A stretch of 63,418 nt of DNA from an uncultured Bacilli bacterium (GCA_934162265.1 CAKPHZ010000004.1:1-63418); one strand, 5' to 3'. Positions 7,103 through 56,475 are shown, counted from the first letter of the stretch. A program made the numbers and translations. The notes: generated by a model from the letters alone, not told the origin.

Positions 7103-9142
7103 TTATTTATATTTTTTCATAATTCTTAATGTATTAATTACCGTTAATAAAGTAACACCAGTATCGGCGAATACTGCTAACCACATATTAGCAAGACCAA
7201 ACACACTAAGGAGTAAGATAATTGCTTTTACCATAAGAGCAAAGATTAAGTTTTCTTGAATAATTTTTTTGGTGTATTTTGAAATATCAATAGCAAGGGG
7301 AATTTTAGTTAAATCATCTTTCATTAAGACAACGTCGCTGGCTTCTATTGCTGAATCACTGCCAACTCCTCCCATAGAAATTCCAATATCAGCTCTTTTT
7401 AAAACAGGGGCATCATTAATTCCATCTCCTACAAAGATAGTGATTTTTCCTTCTTGACTAACTTGTTCGAAATGTTCAAATTTATCTGTTGGAAGCATTT
7501 CTGTATAAATTTCATCTATTGCAAGTTTTTTCCCAATTTCTTCTGATACTTCCTTTTTATCTCCAGTAAACATATAAGTTTTAATCCCGTAGGATTTTAA
7601 TTTTTTGATGACTTCTTCTGAATTTTCTTTAATTCCATCATCAATGGTAACGGACGCTACATGCTCTCCATCAATATTTAAGTGAAGCATTGCTTCTTCT
7701 TTGCAATGACAAAGTTTTTGATTGCCAATAAATATTTTTTTATTATCTAAAGTAAATTCAATTCCTTTTCCGGCATTTTCTTTAAAATCTAAAACATCTT
7801 TATTATCTACTTTTTCCTTTTTTAAGTTTAGAATAGATTTTGCAATTGGGTGGTTAGAGAATGATTCCCCTTTTCTTAAAATATCAACAATTTCATCATA
7901 AGAATACTTATTTTTAAATTTATCCATAATTTCAATTGAAGATACTTTAAATGAACCATTGGTTAGGGTTCCAGTTTTATCAAAGATGATATGACTTACA
8001 TTGCTTAAATTATCTAGATAATTGCTTCCTTTAATTAAAATTCCTTTCTTACTAGCAACACCTATTCCTGTAAAATAAGATAAGGGTACAGAAATAGCGA
8101 TTGCACATGGGCAAGAAATAACTAGAAAGGTAAGGCCTCGATAAATGCCTTCTTTTATAGAAATTTGAAAAATAAGTGGTAATAAAACCATAACTAGTAT
8201 TGCTGTGATAATGACAAATGGCGTATAAATTTTACTAATTTTAGAAACTAATGTTTCTGTTTTGGTTTTTTTATCCGTAGCACTTTCTAGTAAGTTTAGG
8301 ATTTTTGAAACTGTAGAGTTTGAAAACAATGATGTTGCTTTCATCTCAATAATATCCCCTAAGTTAATGCTTCCGGATAGAATTTCAGTTCCTTCTTTAA
8401 TAGATACTTCTTCACTTTCACCTGTTAAGGCTGAGGTATCTAGTTTGCTTTCTCCTTTGGTAACGATTCCATCAACAGGAATTTTTTCTCCTTTCTTGAC
8501 CATTAAAATATCATTTATTTTTACTTCTTCAACGGGAATTTTTTTGATTTCTTCTTTATCTTTTCTATTTACATAATCCTCTTTTATGTTTAATAAGTTT
8601 TTTATTGAATTTCTAGAATTATTGATTGCTTTTTCTTCTAATATTTTTCCAATTGTATATAAAGAAATAACCATCATTCCTTCTAATACTTCTCCAATAC
8701 ATAAAGCACCAATACAAGATATTGTCATTAAGGCATTTTCATTTATTCCATTTCCTTTTCGTAATAGTTTTAAAGCATTTATACTGGTTCGATATAATAA
8801 AATAATATAAGAAACTAGATAAAAAATCCATTTAATTATTTTAGGAAGTGGGATAAAGTAACCAATTAATCCAATAGATAAACCTATGATAAGGCTTGAA
8901 AGATGAAATTCTTTCTTATTATCTTCTTTAGTTTCTGTAATATAAGCTTCTGGCTCGACTTTTTGAATGAATTCATTTAATTCTTCTATACTGTAGTTTT
9001 TTTCTGATTCATAAGAAATTTTACAAGTATTAAAATTTACAATGGCATGATTAAAATTATCATTTTTATTTAATGCTTCTTCTACTTCTCTAGCACAATC
9101 AGCACAGTCTAGGTTGTTGATATGATATTGATATTTACGCAT
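7103..9142 (-). CDS. cadA: heavy-metal (Cd/Zn/Co-type) translocating P1B-type ATPase
   Basis: N-terminal HMA domain with CADC, the transmembrane CPC motif (SCPCAIAISVP), phosphorylation site DKTGTLT and hinge GDGINDAP. It overlaps cadC by 8 nt. Confidence 0.9.
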   Translation of the reverse strand: MRKYQYHINNLDCADCAREVEEALNKNDNFNHAIVNFNTCKISYESEKNYSIEELNEFIQKVEPEAYITETKEDNKKEFHLSSLIIGLSIGLIGYFIPLPKIIKWIFYLVSYIILLYRTSINALKLLRKGNGINENALMTISCIGALCIGEVLEGMMVISLYTIGKILEEKAINNSRNSIKNLLNIKEDYVNRKDKEEIKKIPVEEVKINDILMVKKGEKIPVDGIVTKGESKLDTSALTGESEEVSIKEGTEILSGSINLGDIIEMKATSLFSNSTVSKILNLLESATDKKTKTETLVSKISKIYTPFVIITAILVMVLLPLIFQISIKEGIYRGLTFLVISCPCAIAISVPLSYFTGIGVASKKGILIKGSNYLDNLSNVSHIIFDKTGTLTNGSFKVSSIEIMDKFKNKYSYDEIVDILRKGESFSNHPIAKSILNLKKEKVDNKDVLDFKENAGKGIEFTLDNKKIFIGNQKLCHCKEEAMLHLNIDGEHVASVTIDDGIKENSEEVIKKLKSYGIKTYMFTGDKKEVSEEIGKKLAIDEIYTEMLPTDKFEHFEQVSQEGKITIFVGDGINDAPVLKRADIGISMGGVGSDSAIEASDVVLMKDDLTKIPLAIDISKYTKKIIQENLIFALMVKAIILLLSVFGLANMWLAVFADTGVTLLTVINTLRIMKKYK

Positions 9143-9515
9143 AATCTTCTCCTTTCAATTTATGGTTAATATGTTCTAGTCCAATTTCATATAAACGACT
9201 GATATGTTCATCATCTAGGGTATAATAGACTTCCTTACCATTTCTTCTAAATCGTACAATTCCTGCTTCTCTTAAGATGGCTAATTGATGAGAGATGGAT
9301 GACTTTGTCATATTTAGAACATTAGCAATATCACAAACACACATTTCATGATGATCTAATATCCATAAAATTTTTGTTCTTGTACTATCCCCTAATATTT
9401 TGAAAAGCGTTGTTAAATTTTCTAATTCTTTTTCTTTGGGTTTATTTTTTAAAGCAATATTAACAGCATTTTGATGGATGATATTACAGTCACACATGAA
9501 TTCTTTTTTTTCCAT
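9135..9515 (-). CDS. cadC: ArsR/SmtB-family metal-sensing repressor
   Basis: HEMCVCDIANVLNMTKSSISHQLAILREAGIVRFRRNGKEVYYTL (wHTH with a CVC metal site) plus N-terminal Cys residues (MCDC). An SD AGGAGGAAAAA precedes the ATG. Confidence 0.85.
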   Translation of the reverse strand: MEKKEFMCDCNIIHQNAVNIALKNKPKEKELENLTTLFKILGDSTRTKILWILDHHEMCVCDIANVLNMTKSSISHQLAILREAGIVRFRRNGKEVYYTLDDEHISRLYEIGLEHINHKLKGEDYA

Positions 9516-9541
9516 TTTTTCCTCCTTACTTAACTATATTC

Positions 9542-9571
9542 ATTATAGTTGAATGGTTATTCAATTGTCAA
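9542..9571 (-). promoter_or_regulatory. sigma-A-type promoter with an embedded ArsR/SmtB-type operator for cadC-cadA
   Basis: The minus strand reads TTGACA-N18-TATAAT. The spacer contains the dyad TTGAAT-AACC-ATTCAA (+ strand 9549..9564), i.e. a TGAA-N6-TTCA core as in SmtB/CadC operators. Confidence 0.55.
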
Positions 9572-9612
9572 GAGTTAAATGAAGCAAATATTCTTCTTCA
9601 GTATTTTAAGCA

Positions 9613-9641
9613 ACAAAAAAAGTAGATTATTTCATCTACTT
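9613..9641 (-). terminator. intrinsic terminator ending the six-gene operon 9649..13792
   Basis: Minus-strand hairpin AAGTAGAT-GAAATA-ATCTACTT followed by a T7 run, 8 nt after the stop of 9649..10056. Confidence 0.6.
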
Positions 9642-9648
9642 AAAGTGC

Positions 9649-10056
9649 TTATTTTTCTTCATTATTTAGTATAAAGTTTATTTTTTCATTTAATACAATA
9701 CTAAACTCTTCTTCATCATCCATTGTATTACAGTAAAAATCTATGAGATAAAACTCATTGTCTATCCGTTCTAAAAAACATTTATATGTTCCATAAATTA
9801 GAGAAATCCATCCTTTACTATCATTATATATAATATCTGTTACATACTTAGATATATCTTTTTTATCATTTATTTTTAATTCTTTAATCCACTTTTTATC
9901 ATACACTAGTTCTAATCCTAATTCAAAATCATCTAATATAAAAGTAATATATGGTGCTTTACCCGATCTTTTTTTACCATTTTGTTTTACTTGATAATCT
10001 CCAAAAGATACTTGATATGAAAGTTTACTATATATCTTGTTATTTAATTTAATCAT
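9649..10056 (-). CDS. hypothetical protein (135 aa), last gene of the six-gene operon
   Basis: ORF only; no motif recognised. There is a 19-nt gap to the upstream gene. Confidence 0.5.
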   Translation of the reverse strand: MIKLNNKIYSKLSYQVSFGDYQVKQNGKKRSGKAPYITFILDDFELGLELVYDKKWIKELKINDKKDISKYVTDIIYNDSKGWISLIYGTYKCFLERIDNEFYLIDFYCNTMDDEEEFSIVLNEKINFILNNEEK

Positions 10057-17497: not shown

Positions 17498-18138
17498 TTA
17501 CTTTAAAAGTTGTATATCCTTCTTTAGAGGCGCAGAAATTTCTCCTTTATGGTTTATCACAATATTTTTAGCTATTGCAAGACCTAATCCATAGTGGTTA
17601 TGATTTCCATTTCTTGATTTATCAGAACGATAAAATCTTTCAAAAATATTTTTTTCTTCGCCTTTTTTATTGGTAATCCTTTATTCTTTACTTCAAGGAT
17701 AATTGTCTTATTATTTTTTTCTAATAGTACTATAATTTCTCCTTCTTTTTTGCTGTGTTCTACAGCATTGTCTAGTAGAATATGAATTAATTTTTCTATC
17801 TGTTCTTTTATCATAAGTAAATAAATATCTTTTTCGATAGTAGTGGTTAATTTAATTTTTTTATCAAACATCATACTTTCAAAGGTTAAAATATTTTTCT
17901 CTAGAATAGTGGATAAATTTTCCTTGGTATAGACTTCTTTGGTAATTTTATCTGTTTTTGCGAGTTCTAGCATCTCTAAGACTAGCTTTGTCATTCGATT
18001 TGCTTCTTCTTGAATATTTTTTACCCATCTATCTTCTTTTTTGATGAAATAAGCATCTGTACTTGCTAAAATTACGGAAAGTGGTGTCTTTAATTCATGT
18101 GAGGCATCTTCAATAATTAATATTTTCATCTTTATCAC
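17498..18138 (-). pseudogene. histidine kinase remnant: 5'-truncated and frameshifted
   Basis: It begins at the H-box (IIEDASHELKTPLS) with no TM/HAMP region. The N-box LLDNAVEHS is present. After VKNKG the frame breaks in an A7/T7 run (17649..17655). The +1 frame continues NIFERFYRSDKSRNGNHNHYGLGLAIAKNIVINHKGEISAPLKKDIQLLK-stop (G1/G2 boxes). Confidence 0.75.
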
Positions 18139-18325: not shown

Positions 18326-18481
18326 ATGTCTAAAAAAGATATTTGTTATATTTATTCAGAAGAGTTTATTTTTTCTTCAAATAATTTATCTGAAGAAAAA
18401 ATAAGAGAATTATTTAATCAAAAGATGTATTCTATAATTTTGAAAATAGAGGATTATAATGCTTTAGAGGATGATGAGTAA
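18326..18481 (+). CDS. small acidic-tailed protein (51 aa) translationally coupled to the recombinase gene
   Basis: AAAGGAGATAAG SD lies 6 nt upstream of ATG 18326. It encodes MSKKDICYIYSEEFIFSSNNLSEEKIRELFNQKMYSIILKIEDYNALEDDE, and its stop at 18479..18481 overlaps the recombinase start region (18471). It is below the size cutoff of the ORF track. Confidence 0.35.
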   Translation: MSKKDICYIYSEEFIFSSNNLSEEKIRELFNQKMYSIILKIEDYNALEDDE

Positions 18482-20576
18482 AAAAATGAATGCGATACAA
18501 AAAAATAGTAAAAAGAGATTAAGGGTAGTTTTATATTTACGATTATCTAAAGAAGATTTGTATAAATTAAGTCCATCTGAGAAATCTCAAAGTATTAAAA
18601 ATCAAGAGATAATACTTAGAACTTATGCATTAGAAAATGGTTGGAATATTGTTGGGGTTTTTGATGATGAAGATTATTCTGGTTCTGATCGAGAAAGGCC
18701 TAATTTTAATAAAATGATTAATGAATGTAAAGAAGGGAATGTTGATATTGTTTTAGTAAAAACACAGGCTAGATTTGCTCGTGATATTGGACTGGTGAAT
18801 GAATATGTTCATAATAAGTTCAGACAATGGAATGTTAGATTTGTTACTTATATTGAAAAAATTGATAATACTAAAGATGAAACTAAGAAGACAAGTCAGA
18901 TTATTGCGATGAAAGATGAATGGCTTCTTGAAGATACTTCTAAAAATATTAGGGAAACTTTAAAATCAAAAAGAGCAAAGGGACAATTTACGGGAAGTTT
19001 TGCCCCTTATGGTTATATAAAAGATAGGGAAAATAAAAATCATTTATTGATTGATCCGATAGCATCTTTAAATATAATTAGGATATTTGAAGAATATAAT
19101 ATGGGATATGGAATGGATAAAATTGCTAATAGATTATCTAGAGATAATATCTTAAGTCCTTTAGAGTATAAGATATTTAATGGTAGTAAAATTAAAATTC
19201 CTATAAAAAGAAAAGATTATGTTAATTATATTAATAAAGCTGGTACTTATGTTATTGATATTAATTATACAAATAATCAGAAGAAAATATTAAAAAATAT
19301 AACTACTATTGAGGTTATTTCTAATGAGTTATTATTTAATAATACTTTTAATATAAAACTTTTAAAAAAGAAAAATAGTAAAATTAAAATTTATTATTCA
19401 ATAAAGGATTTAAATAAGTTAGATATTATTATTGATAATGGTAAATATTTATTTAAAAATAAACCAAATTTTAATCATGATAATTGTTGGAAGGAATTTA
19501 AATTAAATGATATACTGCCTAAAGATGTTACTTGTATTGCTACTTATATAACGGAATTAGATAGAATGCATAATATTTTTTATAGTTTTGAAATTACATT
19601 AAAAGAGAATAGAAATCATTTAAAATATTATTATTATATATTTGCTTATGCTGATTATTATAATACTCATTTAAATTATCATATTAAAGTTAGAAATAAA
19701 TACAATTGGAGTGCTACTACTATTAGAAAAATATTATTTGATGAGGTATATATTGGAAATTTGGTACAGTTTAAGACTACTACTGTCAGTTATAAAAATC
19801 ATACTCTTATTTATAATAATAGTGATGAACAAATAAGAGTAGAAAATACTCATGAGGCTATTATTAATTTAAAGTTATGGAATGCAGTTCAAATAAAATT
19901 ATCTCATAATAAAAGATGTTGTAAAGATGGAAAAGTTCATTTATTATCTAATAAGGTTTACTGTCAATGCTGTCAAAAAATATTTTATAAATGTGGAAAG
20001 AGCATAGATGGGATGGGATATTTATGTTGTAAAGATAAGTTAACTAGTTGGTCTAATTGTGATAATAAAAAATGGATTAATGAAAGGTTTTTACACGAAT
20101 ATATTTTACAAAAGTTTAATATTTTATTAGATAAGTATTATTCTATAAATAAACAGATTAAATATGATAATTCTTTTGTTGAAAATAATTTATTTCAAGA
20201 AAAAATTAAAGTTTTACTTAAGGAAAAGAAAGAGATTAGTTTTGATTTGGATAATAAAAAAGGGTATTTTAAAACTTTATATTTAGATTTTAAAAATGGT
20301 ATTCTAAATAAAAAACAATACTTTTATTTAAAAGAAGAAGATGAGGTAGAAATAAAACGATTGGAACAAAGGTTAAAAATTATTGAGAGAAATTTGAAAA
20401 GTATTTATAAAGAAAAAAATGAGAGAAAAAATAGATATTTATTATTTAATAAATATAAAGAAATCAATACTTTAAATAGTTTTATTGTAGATAATTTTAT
20501 TGATAAGATTATTATAGGGAAATATGATTTAATAACGAATAGTCGTAATATTAAAATTATTTGGAATTTTTTATAA
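18471..20576 (+). CDS. large serine recombinase (resolvase catalytic domain + recombinase domain + zinc ribbon + coiled coil)
   Basis: VVLYLRLSKED...SIKNQ (catalytic Ser region), VDIVLVKTQARFARD, FAPYGYIKD, WSATTIRKILFDEVYIGN, Cys cluster CQCCQKIFYKCGK...CCKDK...C, and a K/E-rich coiled-coil tail. It carries an unusual insert of about 170 aa. Confidence 0.85.
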   Translation: MMSKKMNAIQKNSKKRLRVVLYLRLSKEDLYKLSPSEKSQSIKNQEIILRTYALENGWNIVGVFDDEDYSGSDRERPNFNKMINECKEGNVDIVLVKTQARFARDIGLVNEYVHNKFRQWNVRFVTYIEKIDNTKDETKKTSQIIAMKDEWLLEDTSKNIRETLKSKRAKGQFTGSFAPYGYIKDRENKNHLLIDPIASLNIIRIFEEYNMGYGMDKIANRLSRDNILSPLEYKIFNGSKIKIPIKRKDYVNYINKAGTYVIDINYTNNQKKILKNITTIEVISNELLFNNTFNIKLLKKKNSKIKIYYSIKDLNKLDIIIDNGKYLFKNKPNFNHDNCWKEFKLNDILPKDVTCIATYITELDRMHNIFYSFEITLKENRNHLKYYYYIFAYADYYNTHLNYHIKVRNKYNWSATTIRKILFDEVYIGNLVQFKTTTVSYKNHTLIYNNSDEQIRVENTHEAIINLKLWNAVQIKLSHNKRCCKDGKVHLLSNKVYCQCCQKIFYKCGKSIDGMGYLCCKDKLTSWSNCDNKKWINERFLHEYILQKFNILLDKYYSINKQIKYDNSFVENNLFQEKIKVLLKEKKEISFDLDNKKGYFKTLYLDFKNGILNKKQYFYLKEEDEVEIKRLEQRLKIIERNLKSIYKEKNERKNRYLLFNKYKEINTLNSFIVDNFIDKIIIGKYDLITNSRNIKIIWNFL

Positions 20577-20599
20577 TATATTTCAAGAAAACTTTATAT

Positions 20600-20803
20600 G
20601 TGGCTACTGGTCCAACTGGACCTACTGGACCTCAGGGAGCTGCTGGTCCTCAAGGAACTGCAGGAGCTACACCAACTTTGACAATTGGAACAGTAACAAC
20701 AGGAAATCCCGGTACACAGGCTGCTGCTACAATAACAGGAACAGAACCAAATTTCATTTTAAATTTAACTATTCCTCAGGGACCTACTGGACCTACAGGT
20801 TAA
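20600..20803 (+). pseudogene. collagen-like (G-X-Y repeat) protein fragment lacking its own start/SD
   Basis: (V)ATGPTGPTGPQGAAGPQGTAGATPTLTIGTVTTGNPGTQAAATITGTEPNFILNLTIPQGPTGPTG-stop. It is visibly GC-richer than its surroundings. The only in-frame ATG (20561) is inside the recombinase gene, and GTG 20600 has no SD. Confidence 0.55.
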
Positions 20804-46510: not shown

Positions 46511-46686
46511 CTATAACAACTCCTTTCTGTTCTTTATGCCTTAAAAAATCTCTCAGAAACAATATTCCCGAGAGATAAAAAGATTTTTCTACTTTATTCC
46601 TCGGTAAGATTATTAAACACTTTTTGTGTCCTTACTGTCTTGGGCATAAATTTCTGATTACGCGTTATATTATATAATACTTAAAA
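46511..46686 (-). promoter_or_regulatory. putative L10 (rplJ) leader region
   Basis: 176-nt untranslated spacer between rplA and rplJ. It contains hairpins such as minus-strand TCTCTCGGGAATATTGTTTCTGAGAGA. Its position matches the Firmicutes L10 leader, but I did not align it to a covariance model. Confidence 0.4.
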
Positions 46687-51183: not shown

Positions 51184-51220
51184 TTGACTCTCCTGTTTAC
51201 TGGAGTGATAAGTTTATCAC
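51184..51220 (+). promoter_or_regulatory. MerR-type promoter/operator (19-nt spacer with dyads)
   Basis: TTGACT (51184..51189), a 19-nt spacer, then TAAGTT (51209..51214). The spacer holds the dyad CTCCTG-TTTA-CTGGAG. A second dyad, GTGATAA-GT-TTATCAC (51205..51220), overlaps the -10. A GGGGAGGA SD precedes ATG 51237. Confidence 0.55.
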
Positions 51221-51236
51221 GAGGGGAGGAAAATAG

Positions 51237-51503
51237 ATGAGTTGTTCTAGTTGTAAATTTTTAAAAGAAAACAACAAAAGGGAAGGTTGTGTATCTGGAG
51301 CATGTTATTTTTGTTCTAAAAATAATTGTTATGTGAATGGAGCAAATAATAAATGTAATCATTTTCAAAAGTCTTATCGTAGTAGTTATATTTGTGATAA
51401 AATTTTTGAGGATGGAGAAATTTACTATGACAATAGTAAAGGGAATGGTTTTTACTTGTTTATTCTAATAATTATGCTTCTGATGTGTATATTATTTAAT
51501 TGA
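51237..51503 (+). CDS. Cys-rich small protein with a C-terminal membrane anchor
   Basis: 88 aa, with eight Cys in the first 53 residues (CSSC, C-x4-C-x2-C-x4-C, ...). C-terminal TM FYLFILIIMLLMCILF. Confidence 0.55.
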   Translation: MSCSSCKFLKENNKREGCVSGACYFCSKNNCYVNGANNKCNHFQKSYRSSYICDKIFEDGEIYYDNSKGNGFYLFILIIMLLMCILFN

Positions 51504-51528
51504 TGGTAGGAGGTATGTAATAGATGTT

Positions 51529-51954
51529 ATGTATAAAATAGGCGAACTTTCAAAAATAGTTGATATCTCTATTAAAACTTTGAGATATTACGATGAGATT
51601 GGAATACTACCTCCAGCTCATATTGATCAATTTACTGGATATCGCTACTATGATGATGAAAGTATACTTAATATTGAAATGATTAAATCATTGAAATCTG
51701 TTAATTTTACTTTACAAGAAATTAAAGAATATATGATAAATAAAGATGATAAATTATTTTTGAATAAGCAAGAAGAGATTAAAAATGAAATTCGTTTTTT
51801 AGAAGAAAGATATAGAAAATTATCGATTATGATAAAGAAAGAACAAAATGAAAAAGTAAAAGTGAGAAGTCTTTTACCAAAAGAGTTAGATACAAATAAA
51901 GAAAGAAAGGAAAGAAGATATTATGAAAAGAGAAAATTTAGAGACTATTTATGA
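51529..51954 (+). CDS. MerR-family transcriptional regulator
   Basis: MYKIGELSKIVDISIKTLRYYDEIGILPPAHIDQFTGYRYYDDESI followed by a coiled-coil dimerisation helix. The effector domain is short and K/E-rich. Confidence 0.85.
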   Translation: MYKIGELSKIVDISIKTLRYYDEIGILPPAHIDQFTGYRYYDDESILNIEMIKSLKSVNFTLQEIKEYMINKDDKLFLNKQEEIKNEIRFLEERYRKLSIMIKKEQNEKVKVRSLLPKELDTNKERKERRYYEKRKFRDYL

Positions 51955-53470
51955 AGGGAAAAAAAATGTTATCATTGATGGAACCATGTCTGTTGGAAAA
52001 ACTGTAAATTTAGGTTTTTCATTTGTTGATAAAATGGTTGATGATGGAAATAATTTGTTAATTTTAGATTCTAGAAAAGAATACTTAAATAGATTTTATT
52101 CAAAGTTAAAAAAAGAAGGTTATGAAATATTAATTCTTAATTTTGATGATTTTTCTAAGAGTGAAGGTTGGAATTTATTTGATTATCCTTATGAATTATA
52201 TAAATATAAAGATATTGATAGAGCAACTCTATGTTTGGAAAAAATTGCTAAGGAAATATTTTTTGAAAATAATAATGAAGATTCTTTTTGGATAAATTCT
52301 GCTAGAGACTTTTTTGTAGGATGCTGTTTAGCGTTATTTGAAGATGGAAAAAAGGAAGAAATTAACCTTAATAGTATTATTTCATTTTTAAATGAAGATA
52401 ATTCAAATTACATAGAAGAATATTTTAGAACAAAAGATAAAACAAATATAGCCTATACTTGTGTTTCGGGAACTGTATTTTCACCAATAGAAACTAGGGG
52501 AGGAATTATCTCAACTGCAAAGCAAAGATTAACGCCTATTACAAGTAAAAGAGGATTAATGCAATTACTTAGTCAAACAACTTTTTCTTTTAAAGAAATA
52601 AATAAGAAAAAATTGGCATTTTTTCTTATCAACTCTGAAGAAGAATCTATATTAAGCTCATTGGTTTCTATTTTTATACAAGAAATTTTTATGATGCTTT
52701 CTAAAAATAAACAAGAAAGAGAATTTGATGTTGTTTTAGATAATTTTGATACAATTGATAATATTAGTAATTTAAAAGGAATTCTTAGTTCTTGCATTTC
52801 AAAAAATATTAAATTTTATTTAATGACAAGAGATAGAGAATTATTAGAAAATAAATACTCTTCTTATATTAATCAATTAACTAATAGTATTTCTATTCAT
52901 TCTAAAGAAATTATAATTAATGTAGATGATGATTATACTAAAATAGATAATATTATTCCTCAAGAATATATTCAAGAAGAAAATGATATTTTGTATCCTA
53001 CTAGATATACAAACGAAATTAAAGTATTTAATTTAAAAAGATTTATGCTTTTGAATTTTCAAAGTGATAATGAAAAATATAAAAATTATACTCTTGAAGA
53101 AGTTAATTATGAAAAATATAAAGAAGTAAATGGTGAAAATAAATCTTTAAGTCCTCAAGGAATTGCTGTTAAGGAAGGAAGAGCAAAATTTTATATTGTT
53201 AAAAATGAAAATAAAATTGTTGATTCTTTTGTTATATTTTTAGATAGTAATAATTGGATTACTTTAGACTTGAAAAAATTTATCGATGTTATTTATACTA
53301 GTTTTATTTTCAATACTTTAAGCAACTTTGGTTATGAATTTGTTTCTTGTTTCTTACCAAATGATAATGAAAATCTTTTAAACACGATTAAAGATAATTT
53401 TGATGTGATTAAAACTGAAAATTGTAAACAAGGAATGTTTAACTATAAAAAAGTTACTATTGAAGTTTAA
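51923..53470 (+). CDS. type IV coupling protein (VirD4/TraG/TraD)-like P-loop NTPase lacking TM helices, with an extra C-terminal domain
   Basis: The T4CP motif order is kept: Walker A-like IIDGTMSVGKT, LILDSRKEY, SEGWNLFDYP, DSFWINSARDFFVGCCLAL, then the Walker B region FDVVLDNFDTI (Asn where T4CPs have the catalytic Glu of DEF). There is no N-terminal hydrophobic segment, and about 150 aa of unrecognised C-terminal sequence. It overlaps merR by 32 nt. Confidence 0.55.
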   Translation: MKRENLETIYEGKKNVIIDGTMSVGKTVNLGFSFVDKMVDDGNNLLILDSRKEYLNRFYSKLKKEGYEILILNFDDFSKSEGWNLFDYPYELYKYKDIDRATLCLEKIAKEIFFENNNEDSFWINSARDFFVGCCLALFEDGKKEEINLNSIISFLNEDNSNYIEEYFRTKDKTNIAYTCVSGTVFSPIETRGGIISTAKQRLTPITSKRGLMQLLSQTTFSFKEINKKKLAFFLINSEEESILSSLVSIFIQEIFMMLSKNKQEREFDVVLDNFDTIDNISNLKGILSSCISKNIKFYLMTRDRELLENKYSSYINQLTNSISIHSKEIIINVDDDYTKIDNIIPQEYIQEENDILYPTRYTNEIKVFNLKRFMLLNFQSDNEKYKNYTLEEVNYEKYKEVNGENKSLSPQGIAVKEGRAKFYIVKNENKIVDSFVIFLDSNNWITLDLKKFIDVIYTSFIFNTLSNFGYEFVSCFLPNDNENLLNTIKDNFDVIKTENCKQGMFNYKKVTIEV

Positions 53471-53502
53471 AAAATAAGAGTAATTTCAACCTGAAATTAC
53501 TC

Positions 53503-56475
53503 TTATTTACTTTCTAATAAATTTAAGCTATTTACAATAATTTGGTACTGATCAAATCTTTTTTCGACACGGCCTAAAATACGAATGATATCTTTTTTCT
53601 TAATATTATTATATTGTTTATAAGTTTTAGGAAACAGTGTTAGAGAGATTTGTCCATATTCATCGGATGCTGTTACAAAGGACATAATATCATTATTTTT
53701 GGTGGTTACTTCTTTGATATTATCGATTGATAATACCATAGAGATAGTTCTATCGAAGTATTTTTCAATAGATAATGTATCAATGTCAGAGTCTTTTTTA
53801 TAAATATTTGTAGGGTGATTGCTAAGATAAAAACCAAATGTATCTAATTGATTTTCTATTTTTTCTTCTTTTGTATATTCTTCATATTGTTTTAAACTAA
53901 GAGGAGGTAAGTCAATCATTCCTGCATTTTTAGAGATAAGAATATAATTAAAAATTTCTTCCAGATTATTGATTAGTGTTTTTTCATTGGTACCAAAAGA
54001 ATTAAAGCAGCCAGACTTGATTAAAGAAATAATTGCTTTTTTGTTTAGACTACCTGGTTTATTTTCAGTTAAAGGAGAAGGATTTTTTGAAGAAGGAGAA
54101 TAATTTCTTTCTAAGAAGTTAATAAAAGAAGTGTATGGAGCTAGTTTTCTTTCTTCAATGATTTGCTTAGAAATTGTTGTACCTACATTTTTAATGATTG
54201 ATAGGGGACAAATTATTTTTTTGTCTTGTACTTGGTAATTTGTTGTACTTTCGTTAATATCAGGAGGTAAGATTTCGATTTTATTCTGTCTTATTTCTGA
54301 TAAGTAAAGTTTGGTTTTGTAATCATTACCAATGACATTATTTAAAATGGCTGTTTCAAAATATCGAAAGAAGTATGTTTTTAAAAATGCCATCTTGTAA
54401 GCAACAGTAGCGTAGCCAACGGAATGGGATTTATTGAATCCATAATTTGCAAATTTTAAAATTAAGTTATAGATTTGTTCTGCTTGCATTTTGGTATGTC
54501 CATTAGAAAGAGATTTTTCTAAAAATTTTGGTTTTTCTTCTAAAAGGATTTGTTCTTTCTTTTTAGAGATTGCTCTTCTTAAAATATCAGCTTCTCCTAG
54601 AGTATATCCTGCATAAGTTCTAGCGATTTCTAAGATTTGTTCTTGATAGATAATAATGCCGTAAGTTGGTTTTAAGATTTTTTCTAAGCATTTATCTGGG
54701 TAAGTTACTATTTCTAATCCTTCTTTTCTTCTTATATAGTTATCAATAAACTCCATAGCACCTGGTCTGTAAAGAGCGATAGCAGCCACTAAATCATCAA
54801 AGCTAGCAACTTTTAATTTTTCTAAGAAACGTTTCATTCCTGGTGACTCAAATTGGAAGATTCCATCTGTTTTTACTTTTGAAAATACTTCTAGTGTTTT
54901 TTGGTCATCTAAAGGGATATTTTGAAAGGTAATGTTTATTTTTTCTTGTTTTCTAATATTTGTTAAGACTTCTTGAATTAAAGTTAAGTTGGATATTCCT
55001 AAGAAATCCATTTTTAAGAGACCTAATGGTTCTAGGTAATTCATTGAGTATGCAGTTGTGTAAATTCCTCTATTATTTTTGTAAAGAGGGATGGTTTCAT
55101 CAATTGGGATACGGCTGATGACTATTCCTGATGCATGAATTCCAATGTTTCTTGGTAAGCCTTCTAGATGGATGGCAATGTTAAATAGTTTTTGATAAGA
55201 AGAATTTTCTGCTAATAAGCGTTTTAATTTGACATTATTTGACATTATTTCTTGTAAAGTTTCTTTGGGAGAAAATAATTTTGTTAGGTTATCCACTTCT
55301 GGTATAGGTATATTTAATGTTCTTGCTACATCTCTTACTACTTGTTTTGCTGCTAGGGTATCAAAGGTAATAATACCGGCTACTTTTTTTTCTCCATATT
55401 TATTTATGCAATAGTTGATAACATCTTGACGTTTTTCACTGTCAAAATCAATATCAATATCGGGCATTGTTATCCTTTCAGGATTTAGAAAGCGTTCAAA
55501 TAATAAATCATATTTTATGGGGTCTATATCAATAATTCCTAGGGTATAACTAACGAGACTACCAGCAGCAGATCCTCTTCCTGGACCTACTAGAATATTA
55601 TTTTTTTTGGCATATTTGACATAATCCCAGACGATTAAAAAGTAATTACAAAAGTTCATTTTATTAATAATATTTAATTCTTTTTCTAAACGGGTAATAT
55701 AAATTTCTGGTATATTGTTATTCAGTCTTCTTTTTAATCCTTTTTGACATAAGTATTTTAGATAATCATAAGCATTTATTTTTTCATCATAAACAGGTAA
55801 TAAATTATTGGTATAGCCAATTTCTACGTTGCATAAGTCTGCTATTTCTTTTGTTATATTTATATCTATTGTAGTAGTATGTTCTAATAATTCTTGTTCA
55901 TTCATTAAATAATGACCATTATTTTCATTTAAGTGATATTCTCCTATTACTTTTTGTTCTTTTATCATTATTAAATAGTCTAAGTATTTATGGTCTTCTT
56001 TTTCTAGATAAGAAACATTATTTATAAATACTTTGTCTTCTTTTATTTTATCTTGTTCTTCTTTTGTAGAATATCCAATATAATGATATTTATATATATT
56101 ATAGATTTCTTCATTAAAGAAAGAATAGGGGATAACTAAAATTAAGTCATTTTTATAGAGAGTTAGATCTTCTAATGTAATATTTCTTTCTGATACAATT
56201 GTGGATAATTTTATTAGATTTTTGTAACCTTGATTATTCATAGCATATAATAAAATATTTTTATCTTCTACTTCTAACTCTAGTCCTATTACTGGTTTGA
56301 TATTGTTTTTTTTACATTCTTGATAAAACGCTGGTACTCCGAACATATTGTTGTGATCTGTAATAGCAAGAGATTGATATCCTAATGATTTTGCTTTTTG
56401 AATAAGAGCAGGGATGCGAATTAAACTGCTTAATAGAGTGTAACTTGTTTTTAATTGAAGGGGTATGTAAATCAT
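53503..56475 (-). CDS. dnaE: DNA polymerase III alpha subunit (DnaE type)
   Basis: PHP domain LAITDHNNMFG, MPDIDIDF, GLLKMDFLG, FNKSHSVGYA and a C-terminal OB fold. Confidence 0.93.
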   Translation of the reverse strand: MIYIPLQLKTSYTLLSSLIRIPALIQKAKSLGYQSLAITDHNNMFGVPAFYQECKKNNIKPVIGLELEVEDKNILLYAMNNQGYKNLIKLSTIVSERNITLEDLTLYKNDLILVIPYSFFNEEIYNIYKYHYIGYSTKEEQDKIKEDKVFINNVSYLEKEDHKYLDYLIMIKEQKVIGEYHLNENNGHYLMNEQELLEHTTTIDINITKEIADLCNVEIGYTNNLLPVYDEKINAYDYLKYLCQKGLKRRLNNNIPEIYITRLEKELNIINKMNFCNYFLIVWDYVKYAKKNNILVGPGRGSAAGSLVSYTLGIIDIDPIKYDLLFERFLNPERITMPDIDIDFDSEKRQDVINYCINKYGEKKVAGIITFDTLAAKQVVRDVARTLNIPIPEVDNLTKLFSPKETLQEIMSNNVKLKRLLAENSSYQKLFNIAIHLEGLPRNIGIHASGIVISRIPIDETIPLYKNNRGIYTTAYSMNYLEPLGLLKMDFLGISNLTLIQEVLTNIRKQEKINITFQNIPLDDQKTLEVFSKVKTDGIFQFESPGMKRFLEKLKVASFDDLVAAIALYRPGAMEFIDNYIRRKEGLEIVTYPDKCLEKILKPTYGIIIYQEQILEIARTYAGYTLGEADILRRAISKKKEQILLEEKPKFLEKSLSNGHTKMQAEQIYNLILKFANYGFNKSHSVGYATVAYKMAFLKTYFFRYFETAILNNVIGNDYKTKLYLSEIRQNKIEILPPDINESTTNYQVQDKKIICPLSIIKNVGTTISKQIIEERKLAPYTSFINFLERNYSPSSKNPSPLTENKPGSLNKKAIISLIKSGCFNSFGTNEKTLINNLEEIFNYILISKNAGMIDLPPLSLKQYEEYTKEEKIENQLDTFGFYLSNHPTNIYKKDSDIDTLSIEKYFDRTISMVLSIDNIKEVTTKNNDIMSFVTASDEYGQISLTLFPKTYKQYNNIKKKDIIRILGRVEKRFDQYQIIVNSLNLLESK

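Follow-up and report, generated by a model that had tools for sequence, protein, structure and literature searches.

At MerR-type promoters, the regulator binds a dyad located inside an over-long spacer. Coupling proteins of the VirD4 type are normally anchored in the membrane and encoded alongside a relaxase and a type IV secretion system (T4SS). Their mutants devoid of the transmembrane domain (TMD) are inactive and ATPase activity is essential for conjugation (PMC7434980; PMC7431656). A natural subfamily of type IV coupling proteins (T4CPs) lacking the TMD works with small membrane proteins, as is the case for TraJ and TraI of pIP501 (PMC7434980; PMC7431656). Here, we describe an operon that associates a MerR-type regulator with a T4CP-like protein devoid of any transmembrane (TM) segment. 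It is carried by a 63,418-nucleotide stretch of DNA, hereafter the window, from an uncultured Bacilli bacterium (GCA_934162265.1, CAKPHZ010000004.1:1-63418). A MerR-type promoter is followed by a gene encoding an 88-amino acid (aa) Cys-rich membrane protein (g1), by merR, by a gene encoding the 515-aa T4CP-like protein (G3) and by a hairpin terminator. The operon is one member of a hitherto undescribed family that uncultured low-GC gut Bacilli maintain by vertical descent; the related loci are designated below by L and a number. We propose, with a probability of about 0.45, that it is an autoregulated MerR unit in which G3, a nucleoside triphosphate (NTP) switch derived from a T4CP, forms with MerR a sensor/regulator cassette, probably having an accessory or conflict function.

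The G3 gene occupies positions 51923-53470 of the + strand. Residues 1-376 (51923-53050) correspond to a T4CP-like nucleotide-binding domain, which contains an all-alpha insertion and is devoid of TM segments. The resemblance to T4CPs had been noticed in a first-pass annotation of the window, made from the sequence alone, and both profile and structure searches bear it out. Indeed, G3 passes the Pfam cut-offs of T4SS-DNA_transf (PF02534, 68.5 bits for a cut-off of 20.1 bits) and of TrwB_AAD_bind (PF10412, 50.5 bits for a cut-off of 20.5 bits), and its match to the Pfam family TraG-D_C is not significant. The best NCBIfam match, NF045973 (“VirD4-like conjugal transfer protein, CD1115 family”), reaches 131.7 bits, below the cut-off of 250 bits. 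An AlphaFold2 (AF2) model built on 34 homologues has a predicted local distance difference test (pLDDT) score of 87.3. When this model is compared with the PDB using Foldseek, the best matches are Cagbeta (8DOL, E = 4.5e-11) and TrwB (1E9R, E of about 1e-10), VirB4 being weaker. The alignments to TrwB and Cagbeta cover about 370-410 columns, and a helical block at residues 87-227 of the model corresponds to the inserted all-alpha domain. A sequence search gave no PDB match; only the fold search was successful. A viral structure library returns the same two folds for G3, a coupling protein and viral GNATs. By profile and fold, G3 is therefore a genuine T4CP relative. It has no match in PADLOC-DB v2 or in PHROGs. 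A terminase-like reading, in which MerR-like DNA recognition would accompany a packaging ATPase, was considered and set aside because no phage genes lie nearby, no PHROG match was found and the Walker B motif is altered.

The five coupling-protein motifs listed in the first-pass annotation are present in the same order in the 515-aa protein; they include Walker A GTMSVGKT (residues 20-27), DSRKEY and Walker B VVLDNFD, and a TR pair replaces the Gln of T4CPs. To describe these changes, G3 and four other TM-less members were aligned with 13 more distant relatives (454-746 aa) obtained in the same search. The transfer cluster that contains one of these relatives, P0041, also encodes an M23 peptidase and a VirB4-like ATPase. 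In the distant relatives, 147-204 residues precede Walker A and contain 1-2 TM stretches in 11 of the 13 sequences, whereas the G3 clade has about 19 residues and no hydrophobic segment at this place. The absence of a TM segment, noted in the first-pass annotation, is real, but the loss of the TMD is not novel by itself since it defines a recognized subfamily (PMC7434980). Walker A reads G[ST]TG[SA]GK[ST] in the distant relatives and GxMSxGKT in the G3 clade. The following three motifs also differ, with DPKGE vs. DSKEEY for the second motif, LDEFAN vs. LDNFD for Walker B and IIQ vs. xTR for the sensor strand, the first form of each being found in 12 of the 13 distant sequences. The exception is P0051, itself TM-less, which carries DVMGE, LDEFDT and VIK.

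Among 34 sequences of the G3 clade, 26 columns are invariant, and these include G20, K26, D49, E53, D273, N274, D276, T302 and R303. Since N274 is invariant, the replacement of the Walker B Glu by Asn is a family trait and not a lesion; the combination of this Asn with the lack of a TM segment, first noted in the window, holds across the clade. The clade has also gained an invariant Asp at position +3 of the Walker B Asp (DNFD vs. DEFA). In a beta-strand, the +3 residue faces the same side as the +1 residue. Other forms of the motif are DEFD in P0051 and DDFD in L034. The catalytic site of G3 thus appears to be remodelled. The first-pass annotation called it possibly catalytically altered: altered is appropriate, but dead cannot be claimed, given the new Asp at +3.

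The C-terminal part of G3 (residues ~385-515, 53075-53467 of the + strand), left as unrecognised in the first-pass annotation, turned out to have a GNAT-like fold. Foldseek matches it to 1Y9K (E = 5.5e-4), PaiA and SpeG, with E values of 5e-4 to 1e-3 and a probability of 1.0. There is no Pfam GNAT match for this domain even at E = 1. By inspection, the beta4-alpha3 segment, which reads LDLKKFIDVIYTSF, has no Gly and no recognisable acetyl-CoA pyrophosphate loop (Q/R-x-x-G-x-G/A). A homologue search with the isolated domain was empty, and its homologues are known only via hhalign among the loci of the family. Among these loci, MerR is 271-279 aa long in L062 and L064, and is split by a frameshift in L066. 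The extra C-terminal domain of MerR in the three loci is homologous to the GNAT-like C-terminus of G3, as judged from BLASTP (2e-5 to 4e-5) and from hhalign (95.8% probability, E = 7.5e-9, 118 columns), and G3 is short (351-373 aa) in the same three loci. The GNAT-like domain is thus carried either by MerR, at the position of an effector domain, or by G3, a pattern that is usual for two members of a single complex and therefore suggests a MerR-G3 complex. The domain itself could be the signal-receiving module, as this alternation suggests.

A GNAT-type domain also accompanies G3 in three loci without MerR (L048, L053 and L054, at about 8950-10020). There, G3 comes after a protein of 347-355 aa that combines an Imp-YgjV membrane domain with a weak GNAT-like C-terminus. 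The gap between the two genes is +5 nt in L048, and they overlap by 68 nt in L053 and by 20 nt in L054; dacB-spmA-spmB follow G3.

MerR (51529-51954, + strand, 141 aa) is made up of a winged helix-turn-helix (HTH), a long helix and a basic tail. It matches Pfam PF13411 (3.8e-19) and PF00376 (2.7e-13), and only the HTH of mad1 was matched in PADLOC. Pfam and NCBIfam profile searches revealed no separate effector domain. In NCBIfam, the best partial matches are metal-sensor families, and the protein lies far below every metal/redox equivalog cut-off. Because it contains no Cys and a single His, it lacks the ligands of MerR, CueR, ZntR, SoxR and NmlR. Hence, the metal, redox or drug signal put forward in the first-pass annotation finds no support in a regulator having neither Cys nor effector domain.

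The end of merR overlaps the start of G3 by 32 nt (51923-51954, + strand), as first noted in the window. Exactly the same length recurs in 22-24 distinct loci, even where G3 identity has fallen to about 37-40%, and the overlap is predicted to couple the translation of merR and G3. The conserved basic tail of MerR (VLRRKYEKRN) was considered as a G3-binding motif and rejected, as it overlaps the G3 start and the ribosome-binding site. This basic tail is absent where merR and G3 do not overlap.

The promoter elements described in the first-pass annotation were all found, together with a TG that it did not mention and that extends the -10 element. The -35 hexamer TTGACT (51184-51189) is followed by a 19-nt spacer containing the MerR operator (51190-51208) and by an extended -10 element, TGaTAAGTT (51206-51214), in which TG occupies 51206-51207 and the hexamer TAAGTT 51209-51214, all on the + strand. 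The predicted operator is an imperfect 16-nt palindrome, CTCCTGTTTACTGGAG (51190-51205), with 6 of 8 positions matched. The dyad initially read in the spacer, CTCCTG-N4-CTGGAG, is therefore present but imperfect, 5 of 6 positions being matched as written.

Within the AT-rich window, the loose hexamer pattern is not rare by chance (at least one match in 27 of 100 shuffles), while the full operator occurs once and is matched in 0 of 100 shuffles. The window-only statistic being weak, the promoter argument is that of conservation across species. TTGACT-N19-TAnnnT is present in 36 of the 37 MerR-bearing loci, upstream of merR or, in g1-bearing loci, of g1; the remaining locus ends at a contig edge. 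In 31 distinct promoters from related loci, TTGAC(T) and TAnnnT are invariant, the spacer is always exactly 19 nt long, and the two bases before the -10 hexamer are T (30/31) and G (29/31). The centre of the operator is a CAG-N4-CTG core, and its outer arms covary among related loci (CTCCAG/CTGGAG, CTCTAG/CTAGAG, CTATAG/CTATAG, GGCAG/CTGC). This conserved architecture has the signature of MerR-type promoters, and the promoter appears to be the most conserved feature of the module.

A second dyad, GTGATAA-GT-TTATCAC (51205-51220, + strand), lies over the -10 element. As initially reported, it is a perfect inverted repeat, of 7 bp. L001 and L020, the closest relatives, are the only ones to retain it, and L003 has a degenerate version. 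Since transcription is expected to start downstream of it, the dyad would function at the DNA level and not as an RNA hairpin, perhaps as an additional operator or as part of an extended MerR site.

The first gene of the operon (51237-51503, + strand) encodes g1. As described in the first-pass annotation, this 88-aa protein has eight Cys within its first 53 residues (positions 3, 6, 18, 23, 26, 31, 40 and 53) and a hydrophobic C-terminus with one predicted TM helix, which contains a further Cys, C83. Only C3, C6, C26 and C40 are conserved in the alignment, the remaining Cys being variable. An exhaustive profile search gave about 100 cluster representatives, nearly all of 75-105 aa; Pfam, NCBIfam and PHROGs gave no match, and the PADLOC match is at chance level. 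The AF2 model of g1 (pLDDT 55.7) is confident for the TM helix (residues 71-87) alone and was not used in the fold search. These features point to a tail-anchored protein with a cytoplasmic Cys4 domain, which probably binds zinc. Two g1 homologues occur ahead of a MerR gene without any G3, at L072 470-1930 and L075 878-1472. They are 70% and 49% identical to g1, respectively, and both loci have the TTGACT-N19 promoter. The MerR of L072 is 337 aa long, with a different C-terminal domain.

At its other end, the operon stops at a 17-bp hairpin terminator (53472-53508, no strand assigned) that begins two bases past the G3 stop codon and has a T-rich tail. Its folding energy is -18.1 kcal/mol (z = -7.15), and none of 200 shuffles was equally stable. 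The hairpin is common to the convergent dnaE gene, so that the transcription unit is closed at both ends.

How widespread is this arrangement? The G3 protein search gave 53 unnamed metagenomic proteins, and scanning a single genome for each GTDB species gave 52 G3 loci. Nearly all loci come from uncultured Bacilli of human (Hadza, Nepal), rabbit, goat and mouse gut; the family includes “Acholeplasma sp. CAG:878” and “Firmicutes bacterium CAG:582”. Neighbourhoods were analysed for 57 distinct loci, with ±10 kb each. One single-linkage cluster, c0, lumps G3 with unrelated proteins, and its members were not counted as extra ATPases. The TM-less protein of the DN type (LDNFD) is found in about 53 of the 57 loci, and merR lies directly upstream of its gene in 36-37 of these. 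The g1 gene is present in 6 of the ~53 loci. Thus, the three-gene set of the window is kept together only in part: g1 is rare and also occurs with MerR where G3 is missing. MerR and G3 form the conserved core of the module; seen from the regulator, MerR is a hub of which g1 and G3 are each optional partners.

The genes around the module vary (dnaE, rpoBC, serS or dacB-spmAB). In the closest relatives (L001, L002 and L020), the locus is syntenic with the window and all three genes are present. L003 is also syntenic, with 88% identity for DnaE and 63% for G3, and has lost g1 and the C-terminal domain. In L062 and L066, where identities drop to 47-48% for DnaE and 31-33% for G3, the module is still one or two genes away from dnaE. 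G3 therefore diverges much faster than DnaE (63% vs. 88% identity to L003), and both g1 and the G3 C-terminal domain are gained and lost among relatives. Two cassettes can coexist in one metagenome-assembled genome (L020 with L028; L023 with L025). The ratios of non-synonymous to synonymous substitution rates (dN/dS), computed against L001, L020 and L003, are 0.13-0.15 for g1, 0.08-0.25 for merR and 0.17-0.28 for G3. The word domesticated, used in the first-pass annotation, is fair in view of this purifying selection. The module is thus selected, fast-evolving and largely inherited by vertical descent in this lineage, neither a one-off nor a decaying remnant.

In at least 10 loci, the MerR-G3 pair heads a further gene run, with gaps of 14-40 nt. 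The genes found behind the pair encode a radical SAM/SPASM protein, a large variable protein, an HExxH protein and a multi-TM protein, as well as a JAB-like (HTHP) protein or a metallophosphoesterase and, once, an ADP-ribosylglycohydrolase. The variable protein (470-1231 aa) contains 3-5 KYDIxPEDNVPQxVYGVPN repeats. These sister clusters (L006 7547-16656; L008, L012, L027, L029, L030 and L037) are co-directional and also contain a DUF4272/TPR-containing or 180-420-aa protein. Most of their proteins have no Pfam family. In these class-B loci, G3 is 440-460 aa long with an acidic coiled-coil end. In PADLOC, the radical SAM gene hits pVip models and the phosphoesterase the candidate PDC-S10, both being generic matches only. 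The sister cluster may be an uncharacterised effector or modification system. A constant regulator-NTPase head followed by variable genes, fast divergence and the gain and loss of parts together suggest an accessory or conflict system.

Two further observations concern these relatives. TM-less G3 relatives adjoin AraC-family proteins of 154-156 aa reduced to the DNA-binding domain (MarA/SoxS-like) in L011 (7303-9146) and L077 (51-2005). The Walker B motif of these G3 relatives is DNID in one and the intermediate DEFD in the other. AraC would here be a second, unrelated family of sensor-less activators paired with the same NTPase. On the other hand, G3-bearing islands are often found directly downstream of serS (L006 3306-5990, L040, L041, L046, L049 and L056), serS itself being present in L006 as a tandem pair (413 and 429 aa). 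The serS gene may be an insertion hotspot for class-B cassettes.

The proposed sensor/regulator cassette could work as follows. MerR bound to the palindrome of the 19-nt spacer would keep the promoter poised. A signal, recognised by the all-alpha and GNAT-like domains of G3, would reach the sensor-less MerR through G3. MerR would then realign the -35 and -10 elements and transcription of the operon would increase. In the window, the output would be more g1, MerR and G3; in the sister loci, it would extend to the variable downstream genes. Within this scheme, four elements are inferred: a physical contact of MerR with G3, the direction in which the signal travels, the kind of signal, and the accessory or conflict role (anti-mobile-element or stress).

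Several points weigh against this scheme. About 16 DN-clade loci have no MerR, and g1-MerR pairs exist without G3, so that G3 is not an obligate partner of MerR and could be simply its regulated product. The case for a MerR-G3 contact consists of gene coupling and one domain swap, and the conservation of the MerR tail may reflect dual coding and not a binding motif. The defence-related matches of the sister loci are weak and generic. Finally, the absence of T4SS genes discussed below applies to the 63-kb window and to the ±10 kb around the relatives.

The first-pass annotation had found no conjugative element around the operon, and this result stands for the window and for the surroundings of about 50 relatives. 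The 63 kb contain no T4SS, relaxase, VirB4 or pilin gene; when the ±10 kb around the DN-clade loci were compared with two Firmicute T4SS gene sets, no locus gave a homologue, and the Pfam lists of the locus flanks contain no T4SS genes. This result bears on several other explanations of the operon. G3 could be a regulated effector: MerR, alone or via g1, would sense a cue and induce a soluble coupling-protein decoy that would bind DNA, relaxosomes or the T4CP of an invading element and block transfer, in a manner resembling fertility inhibition or exclusion, or would act on host DNA. G3 does keep the all-alpha domain that recognises relaxosome and DNA in T4CPs; lacking a TM segment and having Asn in place of the Walker B Glu, it looks like a naturally occurring dominant-negative or trap protein. 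The g1-MerR pairs without G3 show that MerR can act without it, and the fast evolution of G3 and its restriction to one clade also agree with such a decoy. We nevertheless find this explanation rather doubtful, since MerR has no sensing residues or domain, the presence of the GNAT-like domain now on MerR, now on G3 speaks for a complex of the two, and no resident or invading T4SS is seen near the loci. Alternatively, a coupling protein taken over from conjugative elements may have lost its membrane anchor and become an NTP-gated sensor of conjugative or phage DNA-protein complexes or, by means of the GNAT-like domain, of a small ligand. It would signal to the sensor-less MerR, and MerR would in turn induce variable effectors, g1 in the window and radical SAM/SPASM, peptidase, JAB, phosphoesterase or ADP-ribosylglycohydrolase genes in other loci. 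Such a surveillance function, which we regard as unlikely, would amount to an immune or anti-mobile-element system built from the recognition module of the invader itself. Another possibility is that G3 is a working TM-less T4CP of the TraJ (pIP501) type, anchored by g1 as the analogue of TraI and serving a T4SS and relaxase located elsewhere, as in integrative mobilisable elements (IMEs). A T4CP subfamily lacking the TMD is indeed recognised (PMC7434980), g1 is a small tail-anchored protein of the same operon, the acidic coiled-coil tails of the class-B relatives resemble those of many T4CPs, and several relatives lie beside serS, sometimes duplicated, a possible integration hotspot. This function is quite improbable. 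The Walker B Glu is replaced in every member, while ATPase activity is essential for conjugation (PMC7434980). There is no relaxase, VirB4 or other T4SS homologue in the window or around the ~50 loci, and g1 is missing from about 47 of the 53 loci. Furthermore, a mobile element would not be expected to remain beside dnaE over deep divergence, as the module does, and G3 falls below the NCBIfam CD1115-family cut-off.

Two explanations leave G3 without a role of its own. The operon could be a classical MerR metal/redox operon, with g1 as a Cys-rich handler of metal or oxidant (like MerT, MerF or MerE) and G3 as an unrelated passenger. The promoter is of the MerR type, and g1, the first gene, combines eight Cys, cytoplasmic in the predicted topology, with a TM helix and pairs with MerR even without G3; moreover, the best partial NCBIfam matches of MerR are metal-sensor families. 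However, a regulator with no Cys and one His, far below the equivalog cut-offs, only four conserved g1 Cys resembling a structural Cys4 site, and the translational coupling of MerR and G3 in over 20 species devoid of g1 make this very improbable. The last explanation, a decaying remnant of an integrative and conjugative element (ICE) with no current function, would account for the plasmid and ICE coupling proteins found as nearest annotated relatives of G3 and for the loss of its N-terminal domain and catalytic Glu. It is scarcely credible in view of intact reading frames, dN/dS values of 0.08-0.28 over the three genes, invariant G3 residues including N274, and a promoter and overlap conserved in dozens of species.

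Outside the operon, the window carries mostly ordinary chromosomal genes (rpoB/rpoC, L7/L12, L10, L1, L11, nusG, secE, enolase, clpP, mutY, dnaE and dnaB/dnaI-like genes), and the GC content of the operon region, about 23-27%, is that of the remaining window. The region 18471-20803 encodes a large serine recombinase of 701 aa and, behind it, has a short open reading frame (ORF) with collagen-like GPTGPTGPQG repeats; a truncated histidine-kinase fragment (17584-18129) adjoins this region, which may be the scar of a mobile element or prophage. At 7103-9515, two overlapping genes encode a 679-aa P-type heavy-metal ATPase with an N-terminal CxxC and a 126-aa repressor of the ArsR/CadC type; they form an ordinary CadA/ArsR efflux pair of the cadmium/zinc type, unrelated to the MerR operon. 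The sole Rfam match in the window is a ribosomal protein L10 leader (RF00557, 74.2 bits) at 46534-46662 on the - strand, upstream of rplJ-rplL, and no tRNA genes were found in the window.

Coupling proteins are treated as diagnostic markers of conjugation. Here, a whole clade has left that role, is kept by selection in gut Bacilli with small genomes and is connected to a MerR switch devoid of a sensor. As a practical consequence, automated ICE/IME and T4SS callers keyed to PF02534 or PF10412 will mis-score such loci. If the NTPase is a sensor, the family would provide a new signal input into MerR-type promoters and a case in which the host has taken machinery of mobile elements into its own service, and it could give a handle on uncharacterised gene islands of abundant uncultured gut bacteria.

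The comparison with known systems can now be drawn. The first-pass annotation recognised no described system in this combination of genes, and searches of PADLOC, PHROGs and the literature agree: for the MerR-G3 pairing, we found no named protein, no PADLOC defence model and no published description. With VirD4, TraG and TrwB, G3 shares a RecA-like nucleotide-binding domain with an all-alpha insert, and the motif order Walker A, D-x-K-x-E, Walker B and sensor strand. It differs from T4CPs by the absence of a TMD, its Walker A starting at residue 20 and that of the membrane-anchored relatives at residues 147-247, by LDNFD in place of LDEFA, by an Arg in place of the sensor Gln and by the lack of a TraG-D_C match; in addition, no T4SS or relaxase is found nearby and its partner is a MerR regulator. 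The nearest annotated relatives are 821-aa T4CPs of the CD1115 family, about 24% identical, located in pLS20-like transfer operons on Listeria plasmids (pLM5578). G3 thus descends from coupling proteins, yet it should not be filed as a T4CP, because it fails on the TMD, on the DE Walker B and on the T4SS/relaxase context.

In the case of TraJ and TraI of pIP501, too, a soluble coupling-protein homologue is encoded near a small membrane protein that could serve as its tether. As described, TraJ and TraI lie inside a complete conjugation operon, and a working ATPase is reported to be essential for conjugation; the window has no transfer operon, the catalytic Glu of G3 is replaced, and g1, which merR separates from G3, is lacking in most of the family. 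The CagZ-Cagbeta complex (8DOL) provides a further likeness, since Cagbeta is the top structural match of G3 and a small partner regulates the coupling-protein ATPase; unlike MerR, CagZ is no transcription factor, and unlike G3, Cagbeta has a membrane anchor and belongs to the Cag T4SS. On the regulator side, the operon shares with MerR, CueR, BmrR and SoxR, which act on promoters having 19-20-bp spacers, an N-terminal winged HTH, a dyad centred in a 19-nt spacer that separates good -35 and -10 elements and, as predicted here, autoregulation of its own operon. It departs from them by the absence of an effector domain and of metal or thiol ligands and by the overlap of the regulator gene with an NTPase gene; unlike in classical MerR activators, a GNAT-like domain is present at the effector position in distant relatives. 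Finally, TnrA and GlnR are short MerR-type proteins without a ligand pocket that receive their signal from an oligomeric enzyme, glutamine synthetase, via a C-terminal tail. They do not use the distortion of a 19-bp spacer. Even so, they are the closest precedent for the proposed MerR-G3 logic, the partner being here an NTPase derived from a T4CP.

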